A stretch of DNA of 22,209 bases from a virus (lineage: Duplodnaviria > Heunggongvirae > Uroviricota > Caudoviricetes). Positions 1 through 14,323 of this stretch are shown piece by piece. How positions within the stretch are numbered: position 1 is the first letter of the stretch; each line of letters opens with the position of its first letter. Under the pieces are notes generated by a model. It did no database searches. It saw only the letters and a list, made by a program, of their open reading frames with translations, and was not told the DNA's origin. The stretch lies in IMG/VR virus record IMGVR_UViG_2526164633_000039; one strand, written 5' to 3'. A program made the translations under genes and the position numbers.

Positions 1-1239
1 CTACTTGCTAACCACGAGCGGCAAATCCAGTGTTGGTGTGATTTTTGTTTTACGATCGTAAATCAACACCTGATTTTCTGTTTTATGCCCGCTGAAAATT
101 TGTTTGTCGCGACTGCTGCCTTCGTAATCTGAGATCCCCTTGGCTTTTATGTCGTGAAAATTACACCCGAACGGAACGCCAACTTTTTGCTCGGCTGCGC
201 GTTTAGCCTGATTCCACCAGTTATTCAGCGTTTTAGCTATGACTTTCCCGCCTTTGGTTGTATTGATCACATATTCGCATGTACAGGAAGATACATTTCG
301 GGCTAACTGGATCGCTGTACGTAATCGCGGTGACCATTCCTTGATTTGTTTGGTGCCGGTTTTGTTTTGCTCAATGTAGATCCCTTTATCCATAATATCC
401 TGCCATTTCAACTCAAGCACATCACCGAGTCTTGCCGCACAGAGATAGGAAATCTCCATTGCAATGCGTAACTGTGGAATTGCTTCCGCATATATCGCCG
501 CATACTGTTCATCGGTGATGTAAACAGTGCGGGCTTTAAGAGAGAATTTTCTGACTCCTTTGCATGGGTTATTCTTCACATACCCACGCTCATATCCCCA
601 CCCGTATACTCGACTCAGGCTTGCCAGTTCATGATTTGCCTGGGTCTTGCTCTCAAGCCCTCGTTTATCCATGAAAATTCTTACCTGCTCAGTTTTGACA
701 TTATCAGCAAGCACTTTTCCGAATACCATCAGCAACGCCTTCTGATGTTGTCGATAATCTTTTTGGGTTCGGGGGGCCAGTTCTGTAAATGCAGGGGAGT
801 CCATAAACATGTGCCATAATTTAGCTACGGTCATTATGTTGTGGAGTTTTGCTTTTTCCAGTTCATAATTTTGCCAGACTTTAGCTACGCTGGTTTTCCG
901 CACTCTTCCTAGCCCTATACTTCTTGTACTTCCTTCGGGTTTCCACACGTAACTGTAACCATTCGATCTAACCCGCGGTGGCAGTACATTATCTTTTTTA
1001 TTTTTCTTGGTCTTCCCATTGTTCAGCGCCTCAAAATCGGGTTCAGCAGAAACCAGTTCAGATGTTTTTGGCATCGTTGTCAGACCGTGTGGAATATCCC
1101 TGCGGAGAACTATGGGTTCGTTTTTAGGGCCGATTACAAATGGGATGCCGTGCAGTCTTAACTGGTGTTGCTGTTTTGTGTATCGCTCGTATTTCGTGAT
1201 CTCTTTAATCTCTGCTGGAGATAGAGTTAATTCGTACAT
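1..1239 (-). CDS. int: Phage integrase, tyrosine recombinase family
   Basis: Minus-strand ORF with stop at 1-3. Start chosen at the internal ATG at 1237-1239 (protein begins MYELTLSPAEIK) because the track's longer start at 1377 overlaps the upstream gene. The C-terminal half carries recombinase-like ARLGD, HDIKAKGIS and LIYDR motifs. Terminal position next to exo is typical of lambdoid prophages. Confidence 0.8.
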   Translation of the reverse strand: MYELTLSPAEIKEITKYERYTKQQHQLRLHGIPFVIGPKNEPIVLRRDIPHGLTTMPKTSELVSAEPDFEALNNGKTKKNKKDNVLPPRVRSNGYSYVWKPEGSTRSIGLGRVRKTSVAKVWQNYELEKAKLHNIMTVAKLWHMFMDSPAFTELAPRTQKDYRQHQKALLMVFGKVLADNVKTEQVRIFMDKRGLESKTQANHELASLSRVYGWGYERGYVKNNPCKGVRKFSLKARTVYITDEQYAAIYAEAIPQLRIAMEISYLCAARLGDVLELKWQDIMDKGIYIEQNKTGTKQIKEWSPRLRTAIQLARNVSSCTCEYVINTTKGGKVIAKTLNNWWNQAKRAAEQKVGVPFGCNFHDIKAKGISDYEGSSRDKQIFSGHKTENQVLIYDRKTKITPTLDLPLVVSK

Positions 1240-1306
1240 GTGGTCACGTGCCTTTACAGCATGACCGCCGCCACTATAGCTGGTGGGCGGCGATATGGGT
1301 TGAACA

Positions 1307-3778
1307 TTAAAAATCAGCCTGACTCGGGAGCAGTTTTTGCCAGATGGCTGAAACGTATTTCGCCTGGTAACGTGCATCGTTCAGAGCGTTATGGCGTTCA
1401 CCTTCGAATGGAATAGTCGTTCTTGCGTCGAAATCCATCACCAGTCCCAGAGCAACCATCGTTCTTACATCGCGATCATTGGTGTAACGCCACGGGCAGG
1501 GGATCCCCTGCCGTTCATATGAACGGCGTAAAATCACGTTGTCGAAAGTTGCACCGTTACCCCAGACCTGAACAAAAAATTCACCGGAGTTTTCGTCGAT
1601 AAATTCCCGCAATTGTAACAGTGCATCATCTAACGGGATTTCATCGGTCATAATGGCAGATTGCGCTTCGCGTGATTGCTTAAGCCACCATTTAATGGTG
1701 TCCCGATCAATGACTCCGCCAGCAGTTTCCAGATCAATAGTCTTACTAAATTCCGGTCCCATATCTCCGGTTTGCGGATCGAAAAATATTGCACCTATTG
1801 AGATAATCGGGGCATCAGGATTTTTTCCCATGGTTTCAAGGTCGATCATTAGATGGTCACACGTCCTGCTGGTGGATGTGATAACGTGATGACCGTTCAC
1901 CGTAATTAAGGGATCTGCCGTCTCGCCAGTTTCACTATCGCTGGCGTGATCCTGAGCGCTACCAGCATTCTCCTTGTGTGGATGTTCAGCGCCTTCCATT
2001 TCCTCCGGATCATTTTCCTGAACTTCAACCTGATTCTCTTCATCGAATGTTTCCTGGTATGTTGCGTCACCCATCACCGCGCCACAATCATGGCAGTTGC
2101 CACCACCGCTTTGACCGCAGGCGGTGCAGACTTTTTCCGGTTCCTGTTGCGCTACTGGCTCAGGTTGTTTCGTTTCTGGCTCGTTTTGTTGCGTATTTGG
2201 GCTGTTTTGTTCCGCTTTCTGGTCGTTCTGTTCCGATTCTTGCTGGTTCTGGTTTACAGAATCGCGGGTTTCCATCCCCTTTACCCATTTCGGATCATTC
2301 GGGTCGCTAATCCCTGCAACAAATTCTCCGCGAGAGGCAGCAAGCAACTTATCGGCGTCAGGCTGGCTGATATTGGCTGCCTGCATAATTTTGTTTACTT
2401 CGTCAGCGGTAACTTTTACCGGCTCTGGTTGTGCGGTCGTGTCAGATGCACCAGTATTTTGTTGTGAACCTGAGTATGTACTGTTTTTGCGGGCGAAATA
2501 TTCTTCTTTCGTGATTTCAGTAGCCCCGGCAGCCAGTGCCTTATCCAGACCAGAAAGTTTGTTTGCGCGACCGTATTTTTCGCCATCCTTGTCGGTGAAG
2601 AGGAAGTAGAACGGCCCCTCACGCTCTACAGATGGTTCGACTTCCACTTTGCATTCGGTTTTTTCGTTGTCCGGAATTGCCGTTTCCACTGCATCAGTTT
2701 CTGGTACTGACGACGAGAGAGTATCAGTTGCGCTCTGATTTGTTCCTTCATCTTCAAACACGCCCTTTGTAGTCAGGTATTCAGTAATGTATTTGTTCAG
2801 TGCCACAGGGTCTTTGTGAATGTCGATCGGACGTTCACGGACAAGGCCAAAAATAGTCTGGCGGTCGTAGCGAAGGGCATCAGGCTGTTTGCGCATTGAT
2901 GTCGAGATACGCTTCCAGTCTTCGCGGTCGTTGTCGATAACTTCATTTTTTGCCCAGCGATGGATGCTGCCGTCAATGTTTCCGGCATCCACATCACCAG
3001 GCCAGAGAGCGTAGGCCAGTTCGTCATCCAGTGTTTTCCATGTCTGCTTGTATTCGCGATGAATGGCAGCAATGACCAGGCTGATTTTTCCTGTTGAATT
3101 TTCAGTGTGCTGTTGATTGACTCTGGCGCGGGCGAGATCAACAACAGACGTGTATTTTCCGGTTTCCTTGCGTTCACCTTCGCGACGTTTTTTCCAGATG
3201 CGCATCTCTGCCTGAATTTCGGGCCATTTGGCACCAGGCTTACATTTATGCTTAACCCACCCGATGGCATGCAGCTTAAGCTCCGGATACATGGCGTTAA
3301 CTTCTGGCATTTTCATCAACGCTTCAACGATATGTCCGTCGAATGTTGCCATGTCTTCCTGCAACAATTCCTGTGCGCTAATAACCATATCAACGGTGAT
3401 GTTTTCACATGTGTCGAACTTAACCATGACAGCGTTCTGTACTTCAGGGGCCAGCTTGTCAAAAGTGACGTTCATCGGATCGGATTCAGTCTCAACCGGG
3501 ACAAAGGAAGCAGACTCCTCATCCCAGCGGTTTTCCTGCATATATTCAGCATCCCAGGAATCGAGGGCAGGGCGGGGTATGCCGGGTTTATCCTCACAGA
3601 CAATAAATTTATAAGCGCAGTCCTGAGCTGCAGGGAATTGCTCCAGAAATTGCCAATGAAATTTTGCGCGTGCGCGACGCTCATCACCAGCTTCAATGGC
3701 AGTGGCCACCGCAACAGCGCTATCTTCTTTTATGGCCTGTTCATCAGGAATAGCAGCGCAAATAAAGACTTTACTCAT
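1307..3778 (-). CDS. Large phage exonuclease (823 aa) with a C-terminal DnaQ-like DEDDh 3'-5' exonuclease domain, a Cys4 cluster and an acidic low-complexity linker
   Basis: ATG at 3776-3778 with GAGGT about 9 nt upstream. C-terminus shows [12 protein letters not shown] and HNALNDARY motifs typical of DEDDh exonucleases. [16 protein letters not shown] suggests a zinc ribbon. Sits between int and the dicB operon, as in EHEC-type lambdoid prophages. Confidence 0.65.
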
Positions 3779-3870
3779 TTTGTTTTACCTCATTACAGAT
3801 TTAAGGGTGAACAAATCCCTGCCATTGCTGGCATATAAGAATGAAACCGGATATTTATTACGGAACTGTT

Positions 3871-4062
3871 TTAAAGACCTGCCGGGATTTCGTTATTATC
3901 CTGGTGAATAACTTTATCGACCGGGTAACAGTTACCGGGAATTTTCTGTTCGGTTGCTGCAGTCACACACTCCTGCATTGTCCTGTGAACACTGACTGCA
4001 ATATCAACTGGCTCTCCGGAAACAAGAAAAACTGTCAGAACAAGTGCAAATGCTGTATTCAT
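3871..4062 (-). CDS. ydfD: Small protein (63 aa) with N-terminal hydrophobic segment, YdfD-like (Qin prophage lysis protein) by position and size
   Basis: Start ATG at 4060-4062 overlaps the dicB-like stop as ATGA. Protein MNTAFALVLTVFLVSGEPVDIAV... Sits immediately downstream of dicB as in Qin. Name is from recollection. Confidence 0.5.
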   Translation of the reverse strand: MNTAFALVLTVFLVSGEPVDIAVSVHRTMQECVTAATEQKIPGNCYPVDKVIHQDNNEIPAGL

Positions 4063-4247
4063 TGCCAGCATCCTTTTTGTATCGGACGTAAACGGGCCAG
4101 CATTGAAAGAATGCATATTTTATTTAATAACTCCCGTTCGTGTTTTCTCTTGTTAATGGCATCTTCAGTAAATACAGGGTTACTGATAGTGACACCAATT
4201 TCAAAACAACCTTCAGACGTATTAACGTTTGGTAATAACGTTTCCAT
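4059..4247 (-). CDS. dicB: DicB-like cell-division inhibitor (62 aa)
   Basis: Internal ATG of track ORF 4059..4352 at 4245-4247, preceded by GAGGA. Protein METLLPNVNTSEGCFEIGVTISNPVFTEDAINKRK... matches my recollection of E. coli DicB. DicF lies just upstream. Confidence 0.65.
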   Translation of the reverse strand: METLLPNVNTSEGCFEIGVTISNPVFTEDAINKRKHERELLNKICILSMLARLRPIQKGCWQ

Positions 4248-4427
4248 TATCGCGTCCTCAACAATGAATTTTGTGATGCGATGCCTGGTGCCTCCAGGTG
4301 ACGTTAACCAGTTAACAATTAACGCCGGATACAGAGAATCCACCCATAACACTGTTTTTGGTTTTAACTGTTCCGCGTGCGCTCAGCCGCATTCACCACA
4401 TCACAAAATTCACTTTAAAAAGGGCGG

Positions 4428-4485
4428 CAGAGCAGTCACGGAGTAAAACTGATACCGCCAAACGTCACCAGAAAATTGATAACAG
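4428..4485 (-). ncRNA. dicF: DicF small regulatory RNA (ftsZ-targeting) with intrinsic terminator
   Basis: Reverse complement of 4433-4485 reads TTTCTGGTGACGTTTGGCGGTATCAGTTTTACTCCGTGACTGCTCTGCCGCCC followed by a T-run, matching the DicF sequence as I recall it. GGCGG...CCGCC forms the terminator stem. Confidence 0.65.
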
Positions 4486-4815
4486 AGGGCGTTGCAGCGG
4501 GGTTGTCACTTAAGCGTATGGTCAACCTGACAACCCGGTGTCCTCAACGGGGGAAGGAATAACCCCGCCATACTTACCGCCGCGCCATTTCGCGGATTGC
4601 CACAACCGGAAGCGCACGGTCGACGAAAATTTAACGACAGGCTATCTATGAACCAGCTACCTCGCCGTGCGCTTTCGCGTTATGGTCTGACTTTTCAGGG
4701 AAATATCCTTTCAGTAAACTGTCAATGCCGGATGCTCACCCATGTCCGGCGCACGCACTCCACCTCACCCGTGGAGAACTCCTTAATTACCAACCTTAGC
4801 TTCGTTGGTTAGCTA

Positions 4816-5034
4816 TTAACGCGGGTATGTAATCATTCTGGCAATGCTTAATGCCGCTGCTTTTTCCAGCCTGGTGATATCCTGCTCCAGAGCGGACAGA
4901 TTTTCAGCCTGCTTAGCCCTGGCTTCATTGGCCCATTTCAGATCCTGCGCTGCATTAATTTTCTGGCGCATCCACTCATAAAGTTCATCATCGGTATAGT
5001 CTGGCGAGATGATGACGGGTTCTCGTTTCTGCAT
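4816..5034 (-). CDS. Hypothetical 72-aa protein (YdfC-like by size and position)
   Basis: Track ORF with GAGGAA RBS upstream of the ATG at 5032-5034. Third small gene upstream of dicF in the dicB-type operon. Confidence 0.45.
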   Translation of the reverse strand: MQKREPVIISPDYTDDELYEWMRQKINAAQDLKWANEARAKQAENLSALEQDITRLEKAAALSIARMITYPR

Positions 5035-5063
5035 ACTGATTCCTCGCGGTGCTGCTTCGCTTA

Positions 5064-5192
5064 TCAGCCGTTAGATTTTGCCGAGCTGGAAAGCGCCTGT
5101 TTAAACTCACTGAAGCTGAGAGCTTCTTCGCCTTCGGCAAGGCCTTCGAAGTATTCTTCGTAAGCCTTTTCCATGATTGTGTCGAAATCCAT
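5064..5192 (-). CDS. Hypothetical 42-aa acidic protein (YdfB-like by size and position)
   Basis: Not in the track (<60 aa). Hand translation of the minus strand gives MDFDTIMEKAYEEYFEGLAEGEEALSFSEFKQALSSSAKSNG, with an AGGTGA RBS before the ATG at 5190-5192. Fits tightly between neighbouring genes. Confidence 0.4.
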   Translation of the reverse strand: MDFDTIMEKAYEEYFEGLAEGEEALSFSEFKQALSSSAKSNG

Positions 5193-5193
5193 A

Positions 5194-5349
5194 TCACTCA
5201 CCTGAGTTTCTTTCCAGCCAGCGACGGGCACCATTTTCGGTTTTAAACGTTTTGCTTCTGGTATACGTCATCGCGGTAAACGTGCCGTCCTGGTTGGGAA
5301 ACACGCCGCATACCAGAGATTCGTTGTTGCCAAGATCGATAGTATTCAT
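5194..5349 (-). CDS. Hypothetical 51-aa protein (YdfA-like by size and position)
   Basis: Internal ATG at 5347-5349 of track ORF 5194..5403 with GAGG 6 nt upstream. Protein MNTIDLGNNESLVCGVFPNQDGTF... First gene after the operator-bearing intergenic region. Confidence 0.45.
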   Translation of the reverse strand: MNTIDLGNNESLVCGVFPNQDGTFTAMTYTRSKTFKTENGARRWLERNSGE

Positions 5350-5429
5350 GCTGACCTCATTTCCCCTTAACGCCGGGGTAGCGGAACTGTTTGCTGAGAA
5401 CACCGTGCGGTGTCTTGGTGGAGATTAAT

Positions 5430-5481
5430 TTAGAATAACCTAACAAATGTAGCAAGTATTTTTGTTAGATTGGTCTAACAA
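5430..5481. promoter_or_regulatory. Two palindromic operator-like sites (TTAGAATAACCTAACA and TTGTTAGATTGGTCTAACAA) upstream of the early-left small-gene operon
   Basis: 5462-5481 is a perfect 8+4+8 inverted repeat sharing the TGTTAG/CTAACA half-site with the sites at 5927-5991. Consistent with a repressor-controlled promoter of the dicB-type operon. Confidence 0.4.
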
Positions 5482-5516
5482 AAAGAGTGAGGGAATCTAA
5501 GTATCTGAAAGGAGTG

Positions 5517-5924
5517 TTATTTTATTGATTTGTTTTTACGTGCTTTAAGCATTTCTTCGAAGAGTTTATTGAAATTCTCTACTCTTGCGCGCATTTCAGA
5601 CAGTAAGGCTTCCTGCTCGGAGGAGGGAAGAGCATCGAATAATTCGATCAATTCTTTGTGGCTGGGAGTTAACTCGGTTTCCACATGAAGTTCTTGTGCT
5701 GGCACTGGTGCCTTGTCTTCGTCACCAAACATTAGCCATGTAGGCGAGCACTTCAGCGCATCAGCTAAAGCAAATAACCGCTTCCCGACCGGTTGGGTTT
5801 CGTCTCTTTCCCATTGTGAAATTGTGACGTGAGCTACCCCAGCGAGGCGTGCAGCTTCTCGTTGTGTTAGGCGTAATTCTTTTCGTCGTGCCAGAACTCG
5901 CTGGCCTAGGGTTCTTGTATCCAT
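5517..5924 (-). CDS. dicA: XRE-family HTH repressor, DicA/CI-like (135 aa)
   Basis: ATG at 5922-5924. HTH signature LTQREAARLAGVAHVTISQWERDE. C-terminal CSPTWLMFGDEDK and EMRARVENFNKLFEEMLKAR resemble DicA as I recall it. Divergent from a Cro/DicC-like gene. Confidence 0.7.
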   Translation of the reverse strand: MDTRTLGQRVLARRKELRLTQREAARLAGVAHVTISQWERDETQPVGKRLFALADALKCSPTWLMFGDEDKAPVPAQELHVETELTPSHKELIELFDALPSSEQEALLSEMRARVENFNKLFEEMLKARKNKSIK

Positions 5925-5926
5925 AG

Positions 5927-5991
5927 TTAGGTAATTCTAATTTTTCTTGACTTAGGTATCCCGCGCACATTACTGTTAGGAATATCTAACA
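5927..5991. promoter_or_regulatory. Divergent promoter/operator region with palindromes TTAGGTAATTCTAA (5927-5940) and TGTTAGGAATATCTAACA (5974-5991)
   Basis: Inverted repeats with the same half-site as 5430-5481, lying between the divergent repressor and cro-like genes. A TTGACT -35-like hexamer sits at about 5947-5952. Confidence 0.45.
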
Positions 5992-6004
5992 AGAGGGGGC
6001 TTTG

Positions 6005-6232
6005 ATGCTTAAAGTTGACGCAATTACTTTTTTTGGCAGCAAAACAAAACTTGCCAATGCCGCAGGAGTGAAACTGGCAAGTGTTGCTGCATGGGGGGAA
6101 CTGGTTCCTGAAGGTCGCGCGATGCGCCTGCAAGAGGCATCCGGCGGGGAACTTCAGTACGACCCCAAAGTTTATGACGAATATCGTAAGGCAAAGCGGG
6201 CGGGGCGGTTGAACAATGAAAATCACCCCTGA
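6005..6232 (+). CDS. dicC: Cro/DicC-like small DNA-binding protein (75 aa from ATG; TTG at 6002 possible)
   Basis: AGAGGGGG RBS 5-8 nt upstream of the ATG at 6005. Divergent from the repressor. Sequence MLKVDAITFFGSKTKLANAAGVKLASVAAW... is YdaS/DicC-like. Confidence 0.6.
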   Translation: MLKVDAITFFGSKTKLANAAGVKLASVAAWGELVPEGRAMRLQEASGGELQYDPKVYDEYRKAKRAGRLNNENHP

Positions 6233-6737
6233 ACAGGTTTGTGAGGCTCTGGATGCCTGGGTATGCCGACCAGGAATGACACAGGAGCAGGCGACGATAT
6301 TAATCACGGAAGCATTCTGGGCTCTGAAAGAACGCCCGAACATCGATGTTCAACGCGTCACGTTTAATGATGGCGAGGTTGATCAACGGGCGTTGGGCGT
6401 TAACCGGGTGAAGATATTCGAACGCTGGAAAGCTATCGACACCAGGGATAAGCGGGAAAAATTCACGGCGCTGATTCCGGCAATTATGGAGGCTATCCGG
6501 ATCAGCGATTTCAGGTTGTATTGTGAAATTACTGACGGAAAAAGCATTACGTACATGATCGCCGGGTTAAACAAAGAATATGGTGATGTGGTGGAGTCCG
6601 GGCTGCTTTTTGCGGATCCATCTGTTGTGGAACGTGAGACTGACGAGCTTATAGAAAAAGCTATTGCTTTCAAGCATGCGTATCGTCAGCAATACCAACA
6701 AAAAGCTGGATGGAATTATGAGCCTTCTTTTTGCTGA
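6216..6737 (+). CDS. Hypothetical 173-aa protein in the cII position (possibly YdaT-family)
   Basis: Track ORF overlapping the end of the dicC-like gene. Family assignment is a weak recollection only. Confidence 0.4.
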   Translation: MKITPEQVCEALDAWVCRPGMTQEQATILITEAFWALKERPNIDVQRVTFNDGEVDQRALGVNRVKIFERWKAIDTRDKREKFTALIPAIMEAIRISDFRLYCEITDGKSITYMIAGLNKEYGDVVESGLLFADPSVVERETDELIEKAIAFKHAYRQQYQQKAGWNYEPSFC

Positions 6738-7683
6738 ACGCCCACTGGTTATAAACACACAGCTTGCGATGAAGATTGGCTTAAATGAAGCCATTGTGTT
6801 GCAGCAGTTGCATTACTGGTTGAGAGATACCAGTTCCGGTATGGAATGTGACGGGGTTCGCTGGATTTATAACACAACAGAACAATGGCTGGAACAGTTC
6901 CCGTTCTGGTCAGAGTCAACGTTAAAACGCGCATTTGCAAGTCTGAAAACGCTGGGGCTTTTGCGTTGCGAAAAGCTCAACAAATCAAAGCGTGATATGA
7001 CTAATTTTTACACGATTAATTACGAGAGTGAGCTTTTAGATGGTGGCAAAGTGAGCGAATCCATCAGGTCAAAATGCGCCGCTCCATCGGGTCAAAATGA
7101 CACGATGGAAGAGGTCAAAATGGCACGCTCCATTGGTTCAAAACGACCCAATGTCATCGGGTCAAAATGGCCTGATGATCTTACAGAGAATACAACAGAG
7201 ATTACTACAGAGAATAAAAACACTTCTCGTCCGGAAGCTTCGCAACCGGACCCGCAGACGGCTGAACAGGATTTTTTAACCCGACACCCTGACGCGGTTG
7301 TGTTCAGTGCGAAAAAACGCCAGTGGGGAAGTCAGGAAGATTTGGCGTGCGCACAGTGGATCTGGGGACGAATCGTGAGTCTTTACGAGCAGGCTGCCAG
7401 CGATGATGGCGAGATCACGCGACCGAAAGAACCAAACTGGACCGCATGGGCCAATGACGTGCGCACAATGCGGATGCTGGATGGCAGAAGCCACAGACAA
7501 ATTTGCGAAATGTTTGGTCGGGTACAGCGAGATCCATTCTGGGTAAAAAACATCATGAGCCCGTCAAAGCTTCGCGAAAAATGGGACGACCTGGTCATCC
7601 GCCTGGGGCGTTCACCTGTACAGTGTTGTGTGAATCATATTTCTGAACCGGATACCGAAATTCCGCCTGGTTTCAGGGGATAA
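6718..7683 (+). CDS. Replication initiator, phage O-like, with origin iterons embedded in the coding sequence
   Basis: Start chosen at the ATG at 6718 (MSLLFAERPLVINTQLAMKIGLNEAIVLQQLHYWL, winged-helix-like N-terminus); alternative starts at 6664 and 6676. Contains five about 17-bp repeats at 23-bp spacing followed by an AT-rich tract, as in lambda O/ori. Confidence 0.6.
   Translation: MSLLFAERPLVINTQLAMKIGLNEAIVLQQLHYWLRDTSSGMECDGVRWIYNTTEQWLEQFPFWSESTLKRAFASLKTLGLLRCEKLNKSKRDMTNFYTINYESELLDGGKVSESIRSKCAAPSGQNDTMEEVKMARSIGSKRPNVIGSKWPDDLTENTTEITTENKNTSRPEASQPDPQTAEQDFLTRHPDAVVFSAKKRQWGSQEDLACAQWIWGRIVSLYEQAASDDGEITRPKEPNWTAWANDVRTMRMLDGRSHRQICEMFGRVQRDPFWVKNIMSPSKLREKWDDLVIRLGRSPVQCCVNHISEPDTEIPPGFRG
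7060..7169. repeat. Iteron array: five copies of about TCCATCGGGTCAAAATG at 23-bp periodicity (candidate replication origin)
   Basis: Copies start near 7060, 7083, 7106, 7129 and 7152 (TCCATCAGGTCAAAATG, TCCATCGGGTCAAAATG, GAAGAGGTCAAAATG, TCCATTGGTTCAAAACG, TCATCGGGTCAAAATG). An A/T-rich ACAGAGAATA-type tract follows at 7176-7240. Confidence 0.65.
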
Positions 7684-7723
7684 GTGGTGATTTTAGGGCA
7701 TAAAGTAATGTTCAGGAGGACTT

Positions 7724-8131
7724 ATGGCAAAAGTATTTACACAGGAAGAGCGGGAAAAAATTAAAGGACAGGTGGTGGAACTCGTGCGCCAGAGCGGTCG
7801 TGAGACGTTACGGCAACTGGAAGCTAAAACAGGTGCGACAAGATATCTGATGAGCGTTCTTGCCAGAGAGCTGGTTGCCAGTGGTGATGTATATCACTCT
7901 GGCTATGGGGTGTTCCCGTCAGAACGGGCTCGTAAGGACTGGCAAAACGCCCGCAAAAAACTCTCGAGGGCAAAGGTGAAGAAACCTGTTGTGGTTGATC
8001 CGGGCCTTATCTGGACATTACCCGACGGAGAAATACGCCGCTACGACAGGCGTATGAACATAATCTGTCGCGAGTGCCGGAAGAGCGAAGTTATGCAGCG
8101 TGTATTGGCGTTCTATCAGGGATATGCCTAG
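7724..8131 (+). CDS. Hypothetical 135-aa protein, possible winged-helix DNA-binding N-terminus
   Basis: Strong AGGAGGA RBS before the ATG at 7724. No confident family assignment. Confidence 0.5.
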   Translation: MAKVFTQEEREKIKGQVVELVRQSGRETLRQLEAKTGATRYLMSVLARELVASGDVYHSGYGVFPSERARKDWQNARKKLSRAKVKKPVVVDPGLIWTLPDGEIRRYDRRMNIICRECRKSEVMQRVLAFYQGYA

Positions 8132-8177
8132 AATTGTCACAGGTAATGAAATTAAAGAGTATTGGTTCGGATATGAA

Positions 8178-8206
8178 TTGACATTTTCGCGGCACAGAGC
8201 TAAAAA
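8178..8206 (+). promoter_or_regulatory. Candidate sigma70 promoter (TTGACA, 17-bp spacer, TAAAAA) directed toward the SIR2-like gene
   Basis: TTGACA at 8178-8183, 17-nt spacer, TAAAAA(T) at 8201-8207, about 290 bp upstream of the 8500 start codon inside an AT-rich non-coding stretch. Confidence 0.3.
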
Positions 8207-8499
8207 TAGCCTACTTGTTGGTTTTGTGTGAAAAGCAGACATTTTGAGGCTCAGGATTTGTTATCAAATAAGACCAATACTTATCTATATTAATACACAT
8301 TAAATACTGTGCAATACATTATTGCATTTTATTAGATAAGCGATATTTAGGGAAAAGAAAAGTCATAGAAAACAGGCCGCTATTTGTTGTTGGATTTTAT
8401 AGGCTATATCTAGATTATCTTGCCACTGCGGTCTCTGTTTACCTAACAGCTTGGGCTTCTTTGCATGCAAGTTTGTAATAACAAGAGTAATCAAACGGA

Positions 8500-9531
8500 A
8501 TGTCTATTAATCCTAAACTTAAGCGTATCGCGCGACGCTATCCAGCGTTATTCCAATATGAGTCCCCCTATATGGCAAGAAAATTAATAATATTCGGCAA
8601 CGGTCTCGGTATGGCTTTAGATCCTGCTCACTTCTCCTTAGACAGAGCGTTGGAAGAAATTTGGCATCGCCCCAATTTTTTAAAAGATATCCACAAGCAA
8701 CTTATCGAGCGTTGTCTTCAGCGGCAAGGTCCACCAGAAGGAGAACATGAGTTGGATACCCTTCACCAGGCTGTCACATATTGTAAAGCTCTTGCTCAAA
8801 TTGGAGAGGGGAACGTGCATTGGCTTACTGAAGATGGACTAAACTTCCCCAAAATTACCGCCACTTATATTCACAAAGTTGCAACCAGGTTGCATAATTA
8901 CGATAAAGGTTTGCCACAAAGATTCGAAAATGCGCTTGTGGAGTTTGTAAAGAACACACACTCACATATCGCGACATTAAACTATGACAAATTATTATAC
9001 AATTCATTCATAGATAATGATATATTCAACGGGTATGATGGGGTTTTAGTTGATGGGATGCTAAGCCACGGATTTTCCTCTGCAGCGCTCGAACGGAAAT
9101 ACAATCGTAGGTTTGGTTATTATTTGCACTTGCATGGTTCACCACTATTTATTAATCAGCATGAAAATGTTTTAAAACTTTCACGCTCACAACTTACTCT
9201 TGACATAGATGAACCTAGTGAGCATATAGTGTTAACTCATATAAAAAGAAAACCGTCAGTTATAGCAGCATCTAATGTTCTTTCTACGTACTGGGATTAT
9301 TTGCAGTTTGCATTATTTGAATCAGAAGAAATAATATTGTTTGGTTACTCTGGTCTCGATATTCACCTTAACCTGCTTATTCGACCTTACCTAACCTCTA
9401 AGCCTTTAAGAGTAATTGAGTGGAGCGGTGCTGGTGAACAAAACGCTCGTGAGATATATTGGAAAAACCAGTTGAGACGGGAAGTTACTGTAATTAGGTT
9501 GGATAACATCACTGATTTTATTGATTGGTAG
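8500..9531 (+). CDS. SIR2-like (sirtuin-fold, SIR2_2/DUF4020-type) protein, 343 aa; candidate NAD-consuming anti-phage defence effector
   Basis: Motifs read directly from the translation: glycine-rich IIFGNGLGMA (aa 30-39), IATLNYD (Asn161), YLHLHGS (His210/His212), ILFGYSGLDIHL (aa 279-290). These match the order and spacing of defence-associated SIR2 domains. Coding GC is far lower than the flanking prophage (about 32% in sampled 60-nt stretches). Confidence 0.65.
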   Translation: MSINPKLKRIARRYPALFQYESPYMARKLIIFGNGLGMALDPAHFSLDRALEEIWHRPNFLKDIHKQLIERCLQRQGPPEGEHELDTLHQAVTYCKALAQIGEGNVHWLTEDGLNFPKITATYIHKVATRLHNYDKGLPQRFENALVEFVKNTHSHIATLNYDKLLYNSFIDNDIFNGYDGVLVDGMLSHGFSSAALERKYNRRFGYYLHLHGSPLFINQHENVLKLSRSQLTLDIDEPSEHIVLTHIKRKPSVIAASNVLSTYWDYLQFALFESEEIILFGYSGLDIHLNLLIRPYLTSKPLRVIEWSGAGEQNAREIYWKNQLRREVTVIRLDNITDFIDW

Positions 9532-9601
9532 CGCAATGCGAAGTTAAAGAGGCAGCCTCATATTTATCAGAGCTGGTGTACGTCCAATACAGGAGGTTAT
9601 C

Positions 9602-9691
9602 GTGCTGGTTCTCAAATGCGCGCTGGCTATTGCGGCTGTAGTGGCAATTTATTGTCTTGCTATTGTTCTTATGGATCGCCTTTCTGATTGA
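9602..9691 (+). CDS. Small hydrophobic peptide (29 aa, GTG start), possible membrane-active type I toxin-like peptide
   Basis: Perfect AGGAGG at 9591-9596, 5 nt before the GTG at 9602. Translation (M)LVLKCALAIAAVVAIYCLAIVLMDRLSD is one predicted TM helix plus a short charged tail. Not in the ORF track (<60 aa). Confidence 0.4.
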   Translation: MLVLKCALAIAAVVAIYCLAIVLMDRLSD

Positions 9692-9902
9692 TTTTATATT
9701 GGCGAGGTGACGGGAGTTAAGTAGAATTGCTGCGGGTGCTTGAGGCTGTCTGCCTCGGGCATGCCACCGTAAGGCAGACAGAGAAAAGCCCCAGTTAACA
9801 TTACGCGTCCTGCAAGACGCTTAACATTAATCTGAGGCCCAATCTATGCTTCACAAACGTAGGTTAGCCTCTTACGCGCCGAAAGGCAAGGAGAAGCAGG
9901 CT

Positions 9903-10058
9903 ATGAAGCAGCAAAAGGCGATGTTAATCGCCCTGATCGTCATCTGTTTAACCGTCATAGTGACGGCACTGGTAACGAGGAAAGACCTCTGCGAGGTACG
10001 AATCCGAACCGGCCAGACGGAGGTCGCTGTCTTCACAGCTTACGAACCTGAGGAGTAA
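9903..10058 (+). CDS. hokD: Hok/Gef-family type I toxin (51 aa), HokD/RelF-like
   Basis: MKQQKAMLIALIVICLTVIVTALVTRKDLCEVRIRTGQTEVAVFTAYEPEE has the Hok TM segment and conserved Cys. An in-frame upstream extension from 9846 is mok-like. A perfect 10-bp leader hairpin lies at about 9745-9780. Confidence 0.8.
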   Translation: MKQQKAMLIALIVICLTVIVTALVTRKDLCEVRIRTGQTEVAVFTAYEPEE

Positions 10059-10126
10059 GAGACCAGGCGGGGGAGAAATCCCTCGCCACCGCTGATGTGT
10101 CAGGCATCCTCAACGCACCCGCACTT

Positions 10127-10150
10127 AACCCGCTTCGGCGGGTTTTTGTT
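10127..10150 (+). terminator. Rho-independent terminator downstream of hok
   Basis: AACCCGC-TTCG-GCGGGTT stem-loop followed by TTTTGTTTT. Confidence 0.6.
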
Positions 10151-10273
10151 TTATTTTCAACGCATTTGAAGTTCTGGACGGTGTCGGAATAGAATCAAAA
10201 ATACTTAAGTAGCGCGCAGGGATAAGAGGGATGGTCCCTTAAAGGGGAGAGCTAATTATCCGGAAGGATTCTG

Positions 10274-10525
10274 ATGATGAACATCGAAGAACTGCGTAAA
10301 ATTTTTTGTGAAGATGGCCTCTATGCTGTGTGCGTTGAAAATGGAAATATTGTTAGTCATTACCGCATTGTGTGTTTGCGAAAGAATGGGGCTGCGTTAA
10401 TTAATTTTGTGGATGGTCGAGTGACAGACGGATTTATCTTGCGCGAAGGTGAGTTTGTCACTTCATTACAGGCACTGAAAGAGATCGGAATAAAAGCTGG
10501 CTTTTCTGCTTTTTCAGAAGAATAA
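10274..10525 (+). CDS. rem: Hypothetical 83-aa protein, Rem-like (Qin prophage rem neighbour of hokD) by size and position
   Basis: GGAAGGA RBS before ATGATG at 10274. Lies immediately downstream of hok as in Qin. Identity rests on recollection and synteny. Confidence 0.45.
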   Translation: MMNIEELRKIFCEDGLYAVCVENGNIVSHYRIVCLRKNGAALINFVDGRVTDGFILREGEFVTSLQALKEIGIKAGFSAFSEE

Positions 10526-10591
10526 ACTCATCTACAATCTTGCGCGGGGCTGAACTCCCGCTGAGTAACACCGTGCCGCCGGAGGAAACCG

Positions 10592-10870
10592 ATGGCACGC
10601 AACGCAAAATATTACAATCATGATAATTCGACCGTTCTTGCCCACACGCACGAGCGGTATTCTCACGCATTTAAGTCAGACTGGTACCAGCATCCCCCAT
10701 GCACTGAAGAACAGGCCGAATGGCTCATTCAGTGTTACCGCAGGCGCGGATGCGAGGTTAAAAAAGCCCTTAGCCTCGACTACCGTCACTGGATAATCTC
10801 CGTCGGGCTTCCTTACTCCGAACGCCCACCGCGTCTGTCCCGCACATTCCAGCAACGCATCTGGAGGTAA
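10592..10870 (+). CDS. Hypothetical 92-aa protein
   Basis: Strong GGAGGA RBS before the ATG at 10592. Stop abuts the GTG start of the following gene. Confidence 0.5.
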   Translation: MARNAKYYNHDNSTVLAHTHERYSHAFKSDWYQHPPCTEEQAEWLIQCYRRRGCEVKKALSLDYRHWIISVGLPYSERPPRLSRTFQQRIWR

Positions 10871-10871
10871 C

Positions 10872-11611
10872 GTGCGGGTATTACTTCGACCTGTTCTGGT
10901 ACCGGAACTCGGGCTGGTGGTCCTTAAGCCCGGTCGCGAATCACTGCCGGTTTTTCATTGCGGCAGGGTGCTGGTGGAGCCGGAACCGAAAAGCATGCGC
11001 GGTCTGCCGTCCGGAGTCGTCCCTGCCGTTCGCCAGCCGCTGGCGGAGGATAAATCATTACTGCCATTTTTCAGCGATGAGCGTGTGATTCGTGCTGCTG
11101 GCGGCGCTGGCGCACTGTCTGACTGGCTCCTGCGTCATGTCAAATCCTGCCAGTGGCCTCATGGTGACTACCATCACAGTGAAACCGTCATACATCGTTA
11201 TGGTACCGGCGCAATGGTGTTGTGCTGGCACTGCGACAACCAGCTGCGCGACCAGACCTCCGAATCACTCGGGCAACTTGCTCACCAAAACCTGTCTGCA
11301 TGGATGATTGACGTCATACGCCATGCAATGAATGGCTCGCAGGAACGGGAATTATCGCTGGCTGAATTATCCTGGTGGGCGATCCGCAATCAGGTGGCGG
11401 ACGCGCTACCGGAAGCGGTATTACGTCGTTCGCTGGGGTTGCGTGCGGAAAAAATCCGCTCAATGTACCGTGAAAGCGACATCGTACCGGGAGAGCAGAC
11501 CGCCACCAGCATACTGAAACAGCGCACAAAAAATCTTGCGCCGCTGCCTCACGCCCACCAGCAACAGAACCCGCCACAGGAAAAGACGGTGGTCAGCATT
11601 GCTGTTGATCC
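10872..11611 (+). pseudogene. ydfU: YdfU/DUF968-like gene, 5' portion, interrupted by IS66-family insertion
   Basis: Reading frame runs into the IS and terminates at a TAA created by the IS terminus (GTAAGCG). After removing the IS and one copy of the 8-bp duplication it continues in frame into 14324..14633. Confidence 0.6.
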
Positions 11612-11641
11612 GTAAGCGGCTCGCCAGAACCGTATTGATAT

Positions 11642-13213
11642 TTACTGAGAGGTCAGATCAACTTTCCAGGGCAACAGATCGCGTACCCGGTTTGCCGGCC
11701 AATCCTGGATATGCTCAATGACGTAACGCAGCCATTTTTCTGGTTCCACATTGTTCAGACGGCATGTGCCGATCAGCGAGTACAACACCGCCGCATGTTC
11801 GCCACCGCTGTCGGAACCCGCGAACAGCCAGTTTTTCCGGCCTACGGCCACTCCCCGTAAGGCGTTCTCTGCGATGTTGTTGTCGATTTCCACCCAGCCA
11901 TTACTGCAGTACACGTTCAGGCCATCCCACTGTTTCAGCAGGTATGCGAACGCTTTTGCCGTATCCGAGTGACGCGACAGTGTTTTCATCTGAGTCTGTA
12001 TCCAGTCATACAGTGACTGCATCAGTGGCGCAGCTCTGGCTTTTCTTGCCGCCAGACGCTGTTCTGCTGTACATCCCCGGACTTCTGCCTCTATGGCATA
12101 CAGTTCACCGATACGCTGCAGGGCTTCCGTGGTGATGTCGGTGGGCACTCTTGCATGCACATCGTGGATTTTTCTCCGGGCATGAGCCATACACGCGGCT
12201 TCCGTTATTCTGCCGGATTCGTATAACACCCGGTAACCACCGTAAGCATCGGCCTGAAGCACACCGCTGTAACCGGCCAGATGATTTTGTGGATGGATAC
12301 CTTTCCGGTCCGGTGAGTACGCGAACCAGACCGCCGGGGGCATTTCCGAACCGGCGTTACGGTCATCACGGACGTAGACCCACAGCCGGGCGGTCCGGGT
12401 TTTACCGCTGCCCGGCTCCTGGACCGGGACGGGGATATCATCAGCATGGACTTTACCGGGCATCAGCACATACTGGCGCAGGACGTCATACAGCGGCTCC
12501 AGCAGTTCAGCAACGGCACCTGTCCAGCGCCCCAGCGTGGCGCGGCTCAGCTCCACGCCCTGGCGACGGTATATTTCTGACTGGCGGTATAACGGCAGAT
12601 GGTCTGCATATTTCCCGGTAACAACATGGGCCAGAAGCCCCGCTCCGGCATAACTGCGTGCAATGGGTTTTGAAGGTACTGTTGCCTGCACGATATGGTC
12701 GCACCGACAACAGGCCAGTTTCGGACGTTGTGTTTCGATAACCTTAAAGGCGCTGCTGATAAGCTCCAGTTGCTCTGACACATCACACCCCAGAGGACTG
12801 AGGTCACCACCACAGGCCGGGCAGCATTCCTCTTCCGGCCGGATGACCCGGGTTTCACGGGGAAGTGAGGCCGGTAACGGTTTACGGGCTGAAGACTGGC
12901 GCAGGGCGGATGGCAGTACCGGGTCATATTGCTCACCCAGCGTTTCCGCCATTTCTTCCTGAAGTGCGCTGATTCGCTCCTGTGCTTCCTGTATCTGCCG
13001 TTCGGTTTTAGCGCGAAGTTTTTCTGAGCTTTTACCGAACTGCATGCGCTGCAGTTTCGCAACCAGCGCCTTCAGCCGGTTGATTTCGGAAGCATAAGCC
13101 GCCACCCGCTGTGAGAGCAGGCGGTTGTATTTCGCCATCTGGCGGATGGTGTCCTGTTGCGTCTGCAACAGTGCCCGCAGGCGGGCATTCTCATGAGCAA
13201 GTGAGGTGTCCAT
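11642..13213 (-). CDS. tnpC: IS66-family transposase TnpC (523 aa)
   Basis: Intact ORF with N-terminal coiled-coil/leucine-zipper-like region, a Cys-rich zinc-finger region (CPACGG...CCRCDH) and conserved IS66 transposase core. Confidence 0.9.
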
Positions 13214-13232
13214 ATCCTCACTTTACAACGGG

Positions 13233-13580
13233 TTATATGCGGATGCCAGCGCGTTCCGTTCGTTTCGGGTGCTTCCAGTCGATGCCTTCGAGAAGCATGG
13301 ACAACTGAGCCGGAGTAAGGTGAACCTTTCCATCGCGGGTGACCGGCCAGACGAAGCGGCCCCGCTCCAGGCGTTTGGTGAAGAGGCACAGTCCGTCACT
13401 GTCAGCCCACAGCACTTTTATCTGGTCACCCCGGCGTCCGCGGAAGATGAACAGATGCCCGGAGAACGGGTCATCCTTCAGGACGTTCTGAACTTTTGAG
13501 GCCAGGCCGTTAAAGCCATTTCGCATATCGGTGATACCGGCAACCAGCCAGATACGCGAACCGGCAGGGAGAGATATCAT
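13233..13580 (-). CDS. tnpB: IS66-family accessory protein TnpB (Orf2, 115 aa)
   Basis: MISLPAGSRIWLVAGITDMRNGFNGLASKVQ... is typical IS66 Orf2. Start overlaps the tnpA stop. Confidence 0.9.
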   Translation of the reverse strand: MISLPAGSRIWLVAGITDMRNGFNGLASKVQNVLKDDPFSGHLFIFRGRRGDQIKVLWADSDGLCLFTKRLERGRFVWPVTRDGKVHLTPAQLSMLLEGIDWKHPKRTERAGIRI

Positions 13581-14230
13581 CAGTGGCTGCTCCCTTTCAT
13601 TTCGCGGATAAGTGTCTGTAATAACGCCGGTGTCAGTTCACCTTTCAGCCTGAGAGTTCCGGCCGGCAGAACCAGCTCGCAGCACAGACTGTCTGGCAGT
13701 GTATTTATCTGTTCAGGTATCTGCACTGGTGCCGGGATTTTATTATCCGGCTCCGGAGTTAACGTCACGGGAAGTAGCGATGTTTCATGTTCGCCGGGCG
13801 GTTGCAGGCCACCGTTACGCCAGAGATGCCGCCAGTTAAAGAGCAGGTTATCGTTAATTCCATTCTCTCGAGCTATTTGTGCGACACAGGCACCGGGTAA
13901 AAGAGTTTGCTGAACCAGTCTCCATTTAAACTCCGGTGAAAATCGGTTCCGGCGGGGTTTCTCTGCTTTCACAGGCTGAGTCACGGTCGGGGCTGAAGGG
14001 TATCGCCCCGGGAAAAGAGCCCGGGCCAGTTGCCCGCAGGAATATTCACCGGAAAGAGGCCAGTCAGTGAATACCTGGTGAAATCGCCTCACCAGAGAAA
14101 AAATGGCGGTTTTGCTGACACCAGTCTGCGCAGAAATGCGCGGGTACGACAGTGACTCGTCAAATCTCAGCTGTAGCACACGCAGGATCAATTCTGGATT
14201 ATCTGCCAGTACCGCTTTTCGTGCATTCAT
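13580..14230 (-). CDS. tnpA: IS66-family accessory protein TnpA (Orf1, 216 aa as drawn; a shorter internal start is possible)
   Basis: First ORF of the element, with an HTH-like N-terminus. ATG at 14228-14230. Confidence 0.75.
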   Translation of the reverse strand: MNARKAVLADNPELILRVLQLRFDESLSYPRISAQTGVSKTAIFSLVRRFHQVFTDWPLSGEYSCGQLARALFPGRYPSAPTVTQPVKAEKPRRNRFSPEFKWRLVQQTLLPGACVAQIARENGINDNLLFNWRHLWRNGGLQPPGEHETSLLPVTLTPEPDNKIPAPVQIPEQINTLPDSLCCELVLPAGTLRLKGELTPALLQTLIREMKGSSH

Positions 14231-14323
14231 CTTAAATGTCCTTTTACTGCGAAAATGGACATTAGTATCGGAAACAGGAAAGGGAGGCGAAAGACGGTTT
14301 AAATGATGCGCTTACGTTGATCC

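Follow-up and report, generated by a model that had tools for sequence, protein, structure and literature searches.

The window, by which we mean the whole stretch of 22,209 nucleotides that was analysed, is a lambdoid prophage of the Rac/Qin type that is inserted next to yccA. With E. coli O111:H2 strain 12A it shares 99.9% identity over positions 1-11612 and 100% identity over the 3 kb between 6600 and 9600. The gene under study runs on the plus strand from an ATG at 7724 to a TAG at 8129-8131 and encodes a protein of 135 amino acids, with start, stop and length as given in the initial annotation. It is preceded by the Shine-Dalgarno sequence AGGAGGA (7714-7720, read straight from the sequence), which is the strong ribosome-binding site that had been pointed out, yet its spacing to the ATG is short (3 nt). 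The exact protein already has a RefSeq entry (WP_001151174.1), under the name "DUF977 family protein", and there is thus nothing new in its identity. Comparison with eight homologues gave dN/dS values of 0.07-0.32, which means that the gene is under purifying selection.

The genes that precede it on the same strand belong to the early region of the prophage. The rightward early operon starts with a Cro/CI-family gene (6005-6232), for which we follow RefSeq (L001 11406-11633, identical in sequence). It is followed by a YdaT/CII-like gene (6216-6737; Pfam YdaT_toxin, 8e-06; PHROG_163 CII-like, 1.5e-41) and by the gene of an O-like replication initiator (6718-7683; PHROG_391 "replication initiation O-like", 7.5e-95). 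The start of the latter at 6718 is that of RefSeq, and the longest open reading frame begins at a TTG at 6664. Within the initiator gene, a repeat search (families D1 and D3) revealed five 23-nt iterons at 7062-7177, with a spacing of 23-24 nt and a consensus near CATCGGGTCAAAATGNCNCGATG. They are followed at 7182-7219 by an A/T-rich repeat consisting of two copies of TACAGAGAATA(C/A)AA. By analogy, the iterons and the A/T-rich repeat are presumed to constitute a lambda-type origin inside the initiator gene. The O-like gene ends with a TAA at 7681-7683, which leaves a gap of 40 nt before the ATG of the 135-aa gene, so that the two genes indeed follow each other directly, as had been proposed. 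No plus-strand promoter-like site was found within 5400-8105, and no terminator-like site between the O-like gene and the 135-aa reading frame.

Two minor features of this region may be mentioned. The last 18-20 residues of the O-like protein (window 7625-7683) are 90-100% identical to the corresponding parts of otherwise dissimilar genes in the initiator position, the tail being common to the genes of Shigella phage 75/02 Stx ("primosomal protein I"; L004) and of L016; either a docking tail that these proteins share or a recombination junction could account for this. On the minus strand, opposite the cro-like and YdaT genes, there is a 138-aa reading frame at 5927-6343. It is not annotated by RefSeq, gave no family matches, and is probably a shadow of the plus-strand genes.

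The position of the gene behind a replication gene is a general property of its relatives. In all 20 sampled contexts the DUF977 gene begins from -1 to 40 nt after the preceding gene, on the same strand, and in 19 of these the preceding gene encodes an O-like initiator, a DnaC/IstB-like loader or a DUF1627 protein, which corresponds to the order O-P-ren in lambda. The gap in front of the other sampled members is 14-40 nt, and an overlap occurs only in a copy on a phage-plasmid. This exceptional copy (L021, 3444-4423; NZ_CP151021.1, a 45.9-kb plasmid) is located on an N15-like phage-plasmid that carries genes for a CyRepA1-family replication protein, Cro and Q. There, the DUF977 gene overlaps the end of an Rv2179c-like 3'-5' exonuclease gene and has no adjacent replication gene.

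The initial annotation had left the protein without a function and had proposed a profile HMM search, which now places it in DUF977 and PHROG_142. The Pfam model of DUF977 (PF06163) matches with an E value of 1.7e-29 and 103 bits (cut-off 22.1), residues 1-134 aligning end to end with positions 1-132 of the 134 of the model. This match, the dN/dS values and the presence of the gene in 4433 of 5426 complete E. coli genomes show that the reading frame is not a product of chance. PHROG_142, which is named "Ren-like exclusion protein", matches the 135-aa protein with 1.6e-45 and Ren of phage lambda (NP_040633.1, 96 aa, from NC_001416) with 1.6e-41. With BLASTP, the final 20 residues alone align with lambda Ren, 11 of 20 being identical (NIICRECRKSEVMQRVLAFY vs NLVFKECRQSAAMKRVLAVY). 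When a profile of 15 DUF977 proteins was aligned by hhalign with a profile of 14 Ren proteins, a probability of 96.7% and an E value of 3.5e-10 were obtained, the alignment extending over the winged-helix region at the N-terminus (residues 18-60) as well as the C-terminal motif (residues 110-134). The Pfam, PHROG_142 and profile-profile evidence thus identifies the protein as a longer variant of Ren, in which some 40 additional residues lie in the middle. We regard this membership of the lambda Ren family (DUF977 and PHROG_142, called LygF in phage records) as almost certain, and the grouping itself is already made in PHROGs. Other searches were less informative: a scan against NCBIfam found no family, and a sequence search of the PDB gave only matches at chance level (E at least 0.07). 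LygF is a gene name that has been passed along in phage records, and the literature found under it concerns lysozyme-g and unrelated subjects. No functional study was found in the literature on DUF977 and "Ren-like exclusion protein".

The structure predicted by AlphaFold2 from an alignment of 15 sequences has a mean pLDDT of 77. Residues 7-64 (7742-7915) are modelled as three helices and a beta hairpin (H-H-H-strand-strand), which is a winged-helix domain; averaged over blocks of ten residues, the pLDDT reaches 91-94 within residues 11-70 and stands at 73 in residues 1-10. The N-terminus had initially been described as helix-turn-helix-like, and whereas the DNA-binding type of fold stands, both AlphaFold2 and Foldseek point to a winged helix instead of a plain helix-turn-helix. 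The domain is followed by a strongly basic helix (residues 67-85; 7922-7978), which coincides with a gap in lambda Ren when the proteins are aligned. Ten of the 24 residues from 67 to 90 are lysine or arginine (pI 11.6), and the pI of the complete protein is 10.05. The C-terminal 50 residues or so are modelled with low confidence, including the C-terminal motif (residues 107-131; 8042-8116; pLDDT 50-74), which was recognised from invariant alignment columns, from the BLASTP alignment with Ren and from hhalign. It reads Y-x4-N-x2-C-x-E-C-R-x-S-x2-M-x-R-x-L-A-F-Y and is common to DUF977 proteins and lambda Ren, the form for the Ren family as a whole being N-x2-[CF]-x-E-C-R-x-S-x2-M-x-R-[VI]-L-A-x-Y, with invariant columns in 20 sequences. 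In the family alignments the invariant residues are N112, C115, E117, C118, R119, S121, M124 and R126, followed by L-A-F-Y. It is this motif, and not the winged helix, that is the best-conserved part of the DUF977 family.

The gene itself is a mosaic, with different degrees of similarity for 7724-7888 (residues 1-55) and 7889-8122 (residues 56-133). Two alleles of the winged helix occur: over residues 1-55, one shares about 98% and the other about 55% identity with the window protein, and across these alleles the C-terminal half is 81-90% identical. No correspondence was found between the winged-helix allele and the type of initiator or repressor encoded nearby, from which it follows that the winged helix probably does not read a cognate origin or operator.

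These properties bear on the possibility that the protein is a stand-alone winged-helix transcription factor for early or delayed-early phage genes, such as those of the nin/hok region or the replication genes, which would bind DNA via its N-terminal domain and basic helix and would not act within the replisome. The confidently predicted fold, the high pI and the very basic helix are in agreement with such a role, and so are sub-threshold matches of one homologue to HTH_24, IclR and AsnC and the classification of DUF977 as a winged helix in the Fido paper (PMC2686095). Furthermore, Foldseek searches of PDB and BFVD returned generic winged-helix DNA-binding domains only (GntR, MarR, DtxR/MntR, Z-alpha), with GntR, MarR and DtxR domains as the closest structures. 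However, these matches, with probabilities of 0.9-1.0, have E values of at least 0.016, none is below 1e-3, and the poorly modelled C-terminal half matched nothing in these databases. No dimerisation or effector domain was recognised with Pfam, NCBIfam or Foldseek, conservation is strongest outside the winged helix, and the two alleles of the latter vary independently of the neighbouring genes. Winged helices also serve protein-protein contacts, and we consider a dedicated transcription factor unlikely, with perhaps one chance in a handful.

The similarity to lambda Ren extends beyond sequence profiles. Both proteins have PHROG_142 in common, both combine an N-terminal winged-helix-like region with the motif N-x-[IV]-x-x-E-C-R-x-S-x-x-M-x-R-V-L-A-x-Y, and in both cases the gene ends the replication cluster in the rightward early operon. 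There are differences as well. The 135-aa protein is some 40 residues longer than Ren (135 vs 96 aa), owing to an additional stretch (about residues 65-105), made up of a basic helix and a linker, that is missing from Ren, and it has a CxxC pair (C115 and C118) where Ren has F-x-x-C. The lambda ren gene overlaps its upstream gene translationally, whereas the 135-aa gene is separated from it by the 40-nt gap and has its own Shine-Dalgarno sequence. It also follows the O-like initiator gene without an intervening loader gene of the P or DnaC type. Much closer relatives are the LygF proteins of Rac-SA53, Shigella phage 75/02 Stx and POCJ13, which are 70-93% identical to the 135-aa protein and have the same synteny, although in these phages the gene comes after DnaC-like and DUF1627 genes instead of directly after an O-like gene. 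Beyond the sequence AFYQG, the window protein ends with YA, which is shorter than the NFQEVMA-type tails of LygF and would fit a recombination junction at the 3' end of the gene.

A further comparison is needed because of the name YdaW. The product of ydaW (b1361) of the Rac prophage of E. coli K-12 is encoded in the same prophage gene cluster and also has winged-helix-like regions. In intact Rac-type phages the gene order is YdaU, YdaV, DUF1627 (YdaW) and DUF977 (LygF), with DUF1627 immediately upstream of DUF977. The YdaW protein of K-12 is a truncated DUF1627 protein (PF07789, 3.6e-34). We rejected the notion that DUF977 and K-12 YdaW are the same, as they gave no BLASTP alignment and the 135-aa protein has no match to PF07789. 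An apparent sharing of the C-terminus with DUF1627 (hits H77 and H78, which carry the label "DUF1627 domain-containing protein") was discarded too, these hits being a 3' fragment of a DUF977 gene beside a DUF1627 pseudogene in a degraded Rac remnant; intact DUF1627 proteins are without the C-terminal Ren-type motif. The Rac prophage of K-12 has lost its DUF977 gene, as can be seen when the ydaW region (L005 4253-4813) is compared with L003 5223-6423. A screen has reported ydaW as a blocker of the retron-Sen2 toxin, and since YdaW is unrelated to the 135-aa protein, this effect does not transfer. Functional data on K-12 "ydaW" are thus inapplicable to DUF977.

What is known of lambda provides the most direct indications for a role. 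There, O, P and ren are co-translated, and a ren gene is present in phages that have replication modules with an initiator and a helicase loader; on Rex+ lysogens the growth of heteroimmune lambda ren mutants is poor, their suppressors lie in O and P, and two-hybrid assays show contacts of Ren with both RexA and RexB (Thomason et al., bioRxiv 10.1101/2021.04.19.439022). The explanation that we favour is that the 135-aa gene encodes a long-form Ren, that it closes the conserved part of the rightward early (pR-type) operon in a lambdoid prophage of the Rac/Qin type, that its product acts as a replication accessory and that it has no tie to the SIR2 gene further downstream. As a whole we judge this explanation to be probable, by a modest measure. 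Upon derepression of the prophage, the gene would be co-transcribed with the cro-like, YdaT/CII-like and O-like initiator genes, and it would be translated from its own strong ribosome-binding site. By homology with Ren, the C-terminal motif may then engage in protein-protein contacts, which would make the protein an accessory of the phage replication-initiation complex that probably tunes or protects phage replication, and in this way it could decide how sensitive the phage is to Rex-type exclusion by resident prophages. For this mechanism proper, which leans on the analogy with lambda, our confidence is tentative and falls slightly short of even. The 40-nt gap without overlap, the basic helix and 40 residues that are absent from Ren, and the 3'-5' exonuclease gene that precedes the DUF977 gene in the N15-like phage-plasmid all speak against an accessory function modelled on Ren. 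Moreover, as the annotated part of the window prophage showed no rexAB genes and the family occurs much more widely than Rex does, escape from Rex cannot be its general role.

The same phenotype of Ren allows a second reading, in which the protein is primarily an anti-defence (exclusion-escape) protein, by which abortive-infection systems of resident prophages would be neutralised or evaded, and has no role in replication. The protection of lambda against Rex exclusion, together with the two-hybrid contacts with RexA and RexB, is after all the sole known phenotype of the family; the name of PHROG_142 refers to exclusion, the family falls in the category "moron, auxiliary metabolic gene and host takeover", and the 135-aa gene adjoins a slot with defence cargo. 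On the other hand, the suppressors of ren in O and P tie the phenotype to replication, and the gene is a near-universal backbone gene with a fixed synteny to replication genes and not a variable moron. A PADLOC search with the 135-aa protein gave no match to any defence-system model, although PADLOC holds defence systems and not anti-defence proteins. We find a purely anti-defensive function rather improbable, and prefer that of a replication accessory.

Downstream of the gene, the prophage backbone soon gives way to other DNA. According to blastn comparisons of the window with the homologous loci, the 3' flank at 8132-8243 still belongs to the backbone and forms the left edge of a cargo slot: sister prophages cease to be homologous at 8188 (L008) or 8243 (L006 and L010), i.e. 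60-110 nt past the stop codon, and become so again at 9549-9669. The backbone order of the sister prophages is repressor, YdaT, O-like, DUF977 and then hok, rem and DUF968, and the slot lies between the DUF977 gene and hokD (window 8190/8244 to 9548/9668). In the window it contains, on the plus strand, a SIR2 gene that starts at 8500 or, according to RefSeq, at 8572 and ends at 9531; the protein has weak matches to Pfam SIR2_2 (1e-05) and to PADLOC models (4e-06). The spacer between the two genes is 368 bp up to the first SIR2 ATG (8500) and 440 bp up to the RefSeq start. It is AT-rich (GC 0.39 for 8001-8500) and has a promoter-like site, TTGACA-18-AAAAAT, at 8178-8207, in line with the roughly 370 bp of promoter-like DNA noted before. 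The imperfect inverted repeats in the spacer are in part located in cargo DNA that sister prophages lack, and no plus-strand terminator-like site was found between 8131 and 8500.

Elsewhere the slot is filled differently. The cargo is a RelA_SpoT protein with a match to the candidate defence system PDC-S33 (5e-119) in L008, QueH together with Kiwa KwaA/KwaB (1e-101 and 3e-159) in L010, QueH in L006, L012, L023 and L024, DUF262 in L028 and an alpha/beta hydrolase in L027, whereas some sister prophages carry small hypothetical proteins. The interval thus looks like a defence hotspot of Rac/Qin-type prophages. Sister prophages with different cargo keep the DUF977 gene, at 90% identity on the protein level, and a SIR2 gene stands beside it in only 46 genomes, as against the 4433 that have the gene. 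The SIR2 gene is therefore exchangeable cargo with its own upstream AT-rich DNA, while the 135-aa gene and its flank of 60-110 nt are backbone. The conserved replication-gene context, the rarity of the SIR2 pairing and the presence of other cargo in the slot make the 135-aa gene a member of the replication cluster and not a regulator of the island. Of the two roles that the initial annotation had considered, the replication module is therefore borne out, by homology to Ren and by the replication gene directly upstream in nearly all sampled contexts, and that of a cargo regulator is not supported: the gene is clearly assigned to a replication-region family and has no link to the SIR2 island, which is what the initial annotation had named as a refutation. 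The earlier caution about a common operon was right as well. That the protein would be a dedicated regulator or partner of the SIR2 protein, as adjacency on the same strand, a DNA-binding-type fold and the lack of a terminator-like site between the genes might suggest, is already largely refuted and extremely improbable in view of the homology breakpoint between the two genes, the few genomes with the pair, the absence of a PADLOC match, and the sister prophages that have Kiwa, PDC-S33, QueH, DUF262 or nothing comparable instead. In our preferred reading, the SIR2 gene is interchangeable cargo inserted just downstream, and the 135-aa protein neither its partner nor its regulator. In practical terms, the 135-aa gene should not be counted within the SIR2 island, and the cargo slot that contains the SIR2 gene has its left edge 60-110 nt after it.

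A more far-reaching proposal would combine these elements. Long-form Ren could protect lambdoid replication complexes in general from abortive-infection systems: the invariant C-terminal motif would dock on the phage initiator or on DnaB of the host, the variable winged helix would select the resident defence, Rex-like or other, that is evaded, and the 3' end of the gene would serve as the left anchor of the cargo hotspot. If this were true, the conserved 3' end would be the recombination anchor for the slot in which SIR2, Kiwa, PDC-S33, DUF262 and QueH are exchanged in Rac/Qin-type prophages. We put this forward as speculation that is a good deal more likely to be wrong than right.

The DUF977 family is narrow yet very abundant. 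About 82% of the complete E. coli genomes have the gene (4433 of 5426), with a median of two copies and up to seven, about 8700 copies in all. Searching 1.84 billion representative proteins exhaustively with HMMER, we obtained no more than 101 clusters, among them many fragments, and among GTDB species representatives there are only 12 DUF977 loci, nearly all in Escherichia or Shigella. Due to this narrowness, no deep alignment is possible for covariation analysis or for improved structure prediction. Some loci were assigned to unexpected hosts: L007, L009 (MAG "Collinsella sp.") and L010 (MAG "Veillonella parvula") carry an E. coli-type prophage region with a DUF977 protein that is about 90% identical to that of the window. 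These copies in Gram-positive and Negativicutes MAGs most likely result from contamination during binning and do not indicate true hosts.

The 135-aa gene is thus an ordinary and very common backbone gene of lambda-like prophages of E. coli, and the useful results of this analysis are mainly negative and clarifying, with little weight as a discovery. To our knowledge, no biochemical function has been assigned to the Ren family since 1980. Occurring in some four-fifths of the complete E. coli genomes, frequently as more than one copy, the family offers a cheap and tractable target for studies on lambdoid replication and Rex-type exclusion.

Further to the right, the window carries a 2.7-kb insertion (11613-14315) that splits a DUF968 gene which is intact in strain 12A. 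It contains three minus-strand reading frames, of 523, 115 and 216 aa, and is accompanied by a duplication of about 9 bp of the target; judged by the layout of the reading frames alone, this suggests an IS66-family element. A second copy of the insertion, 95.7% identical to the first, is found at 20602-22209 and runs past the right end of the window.
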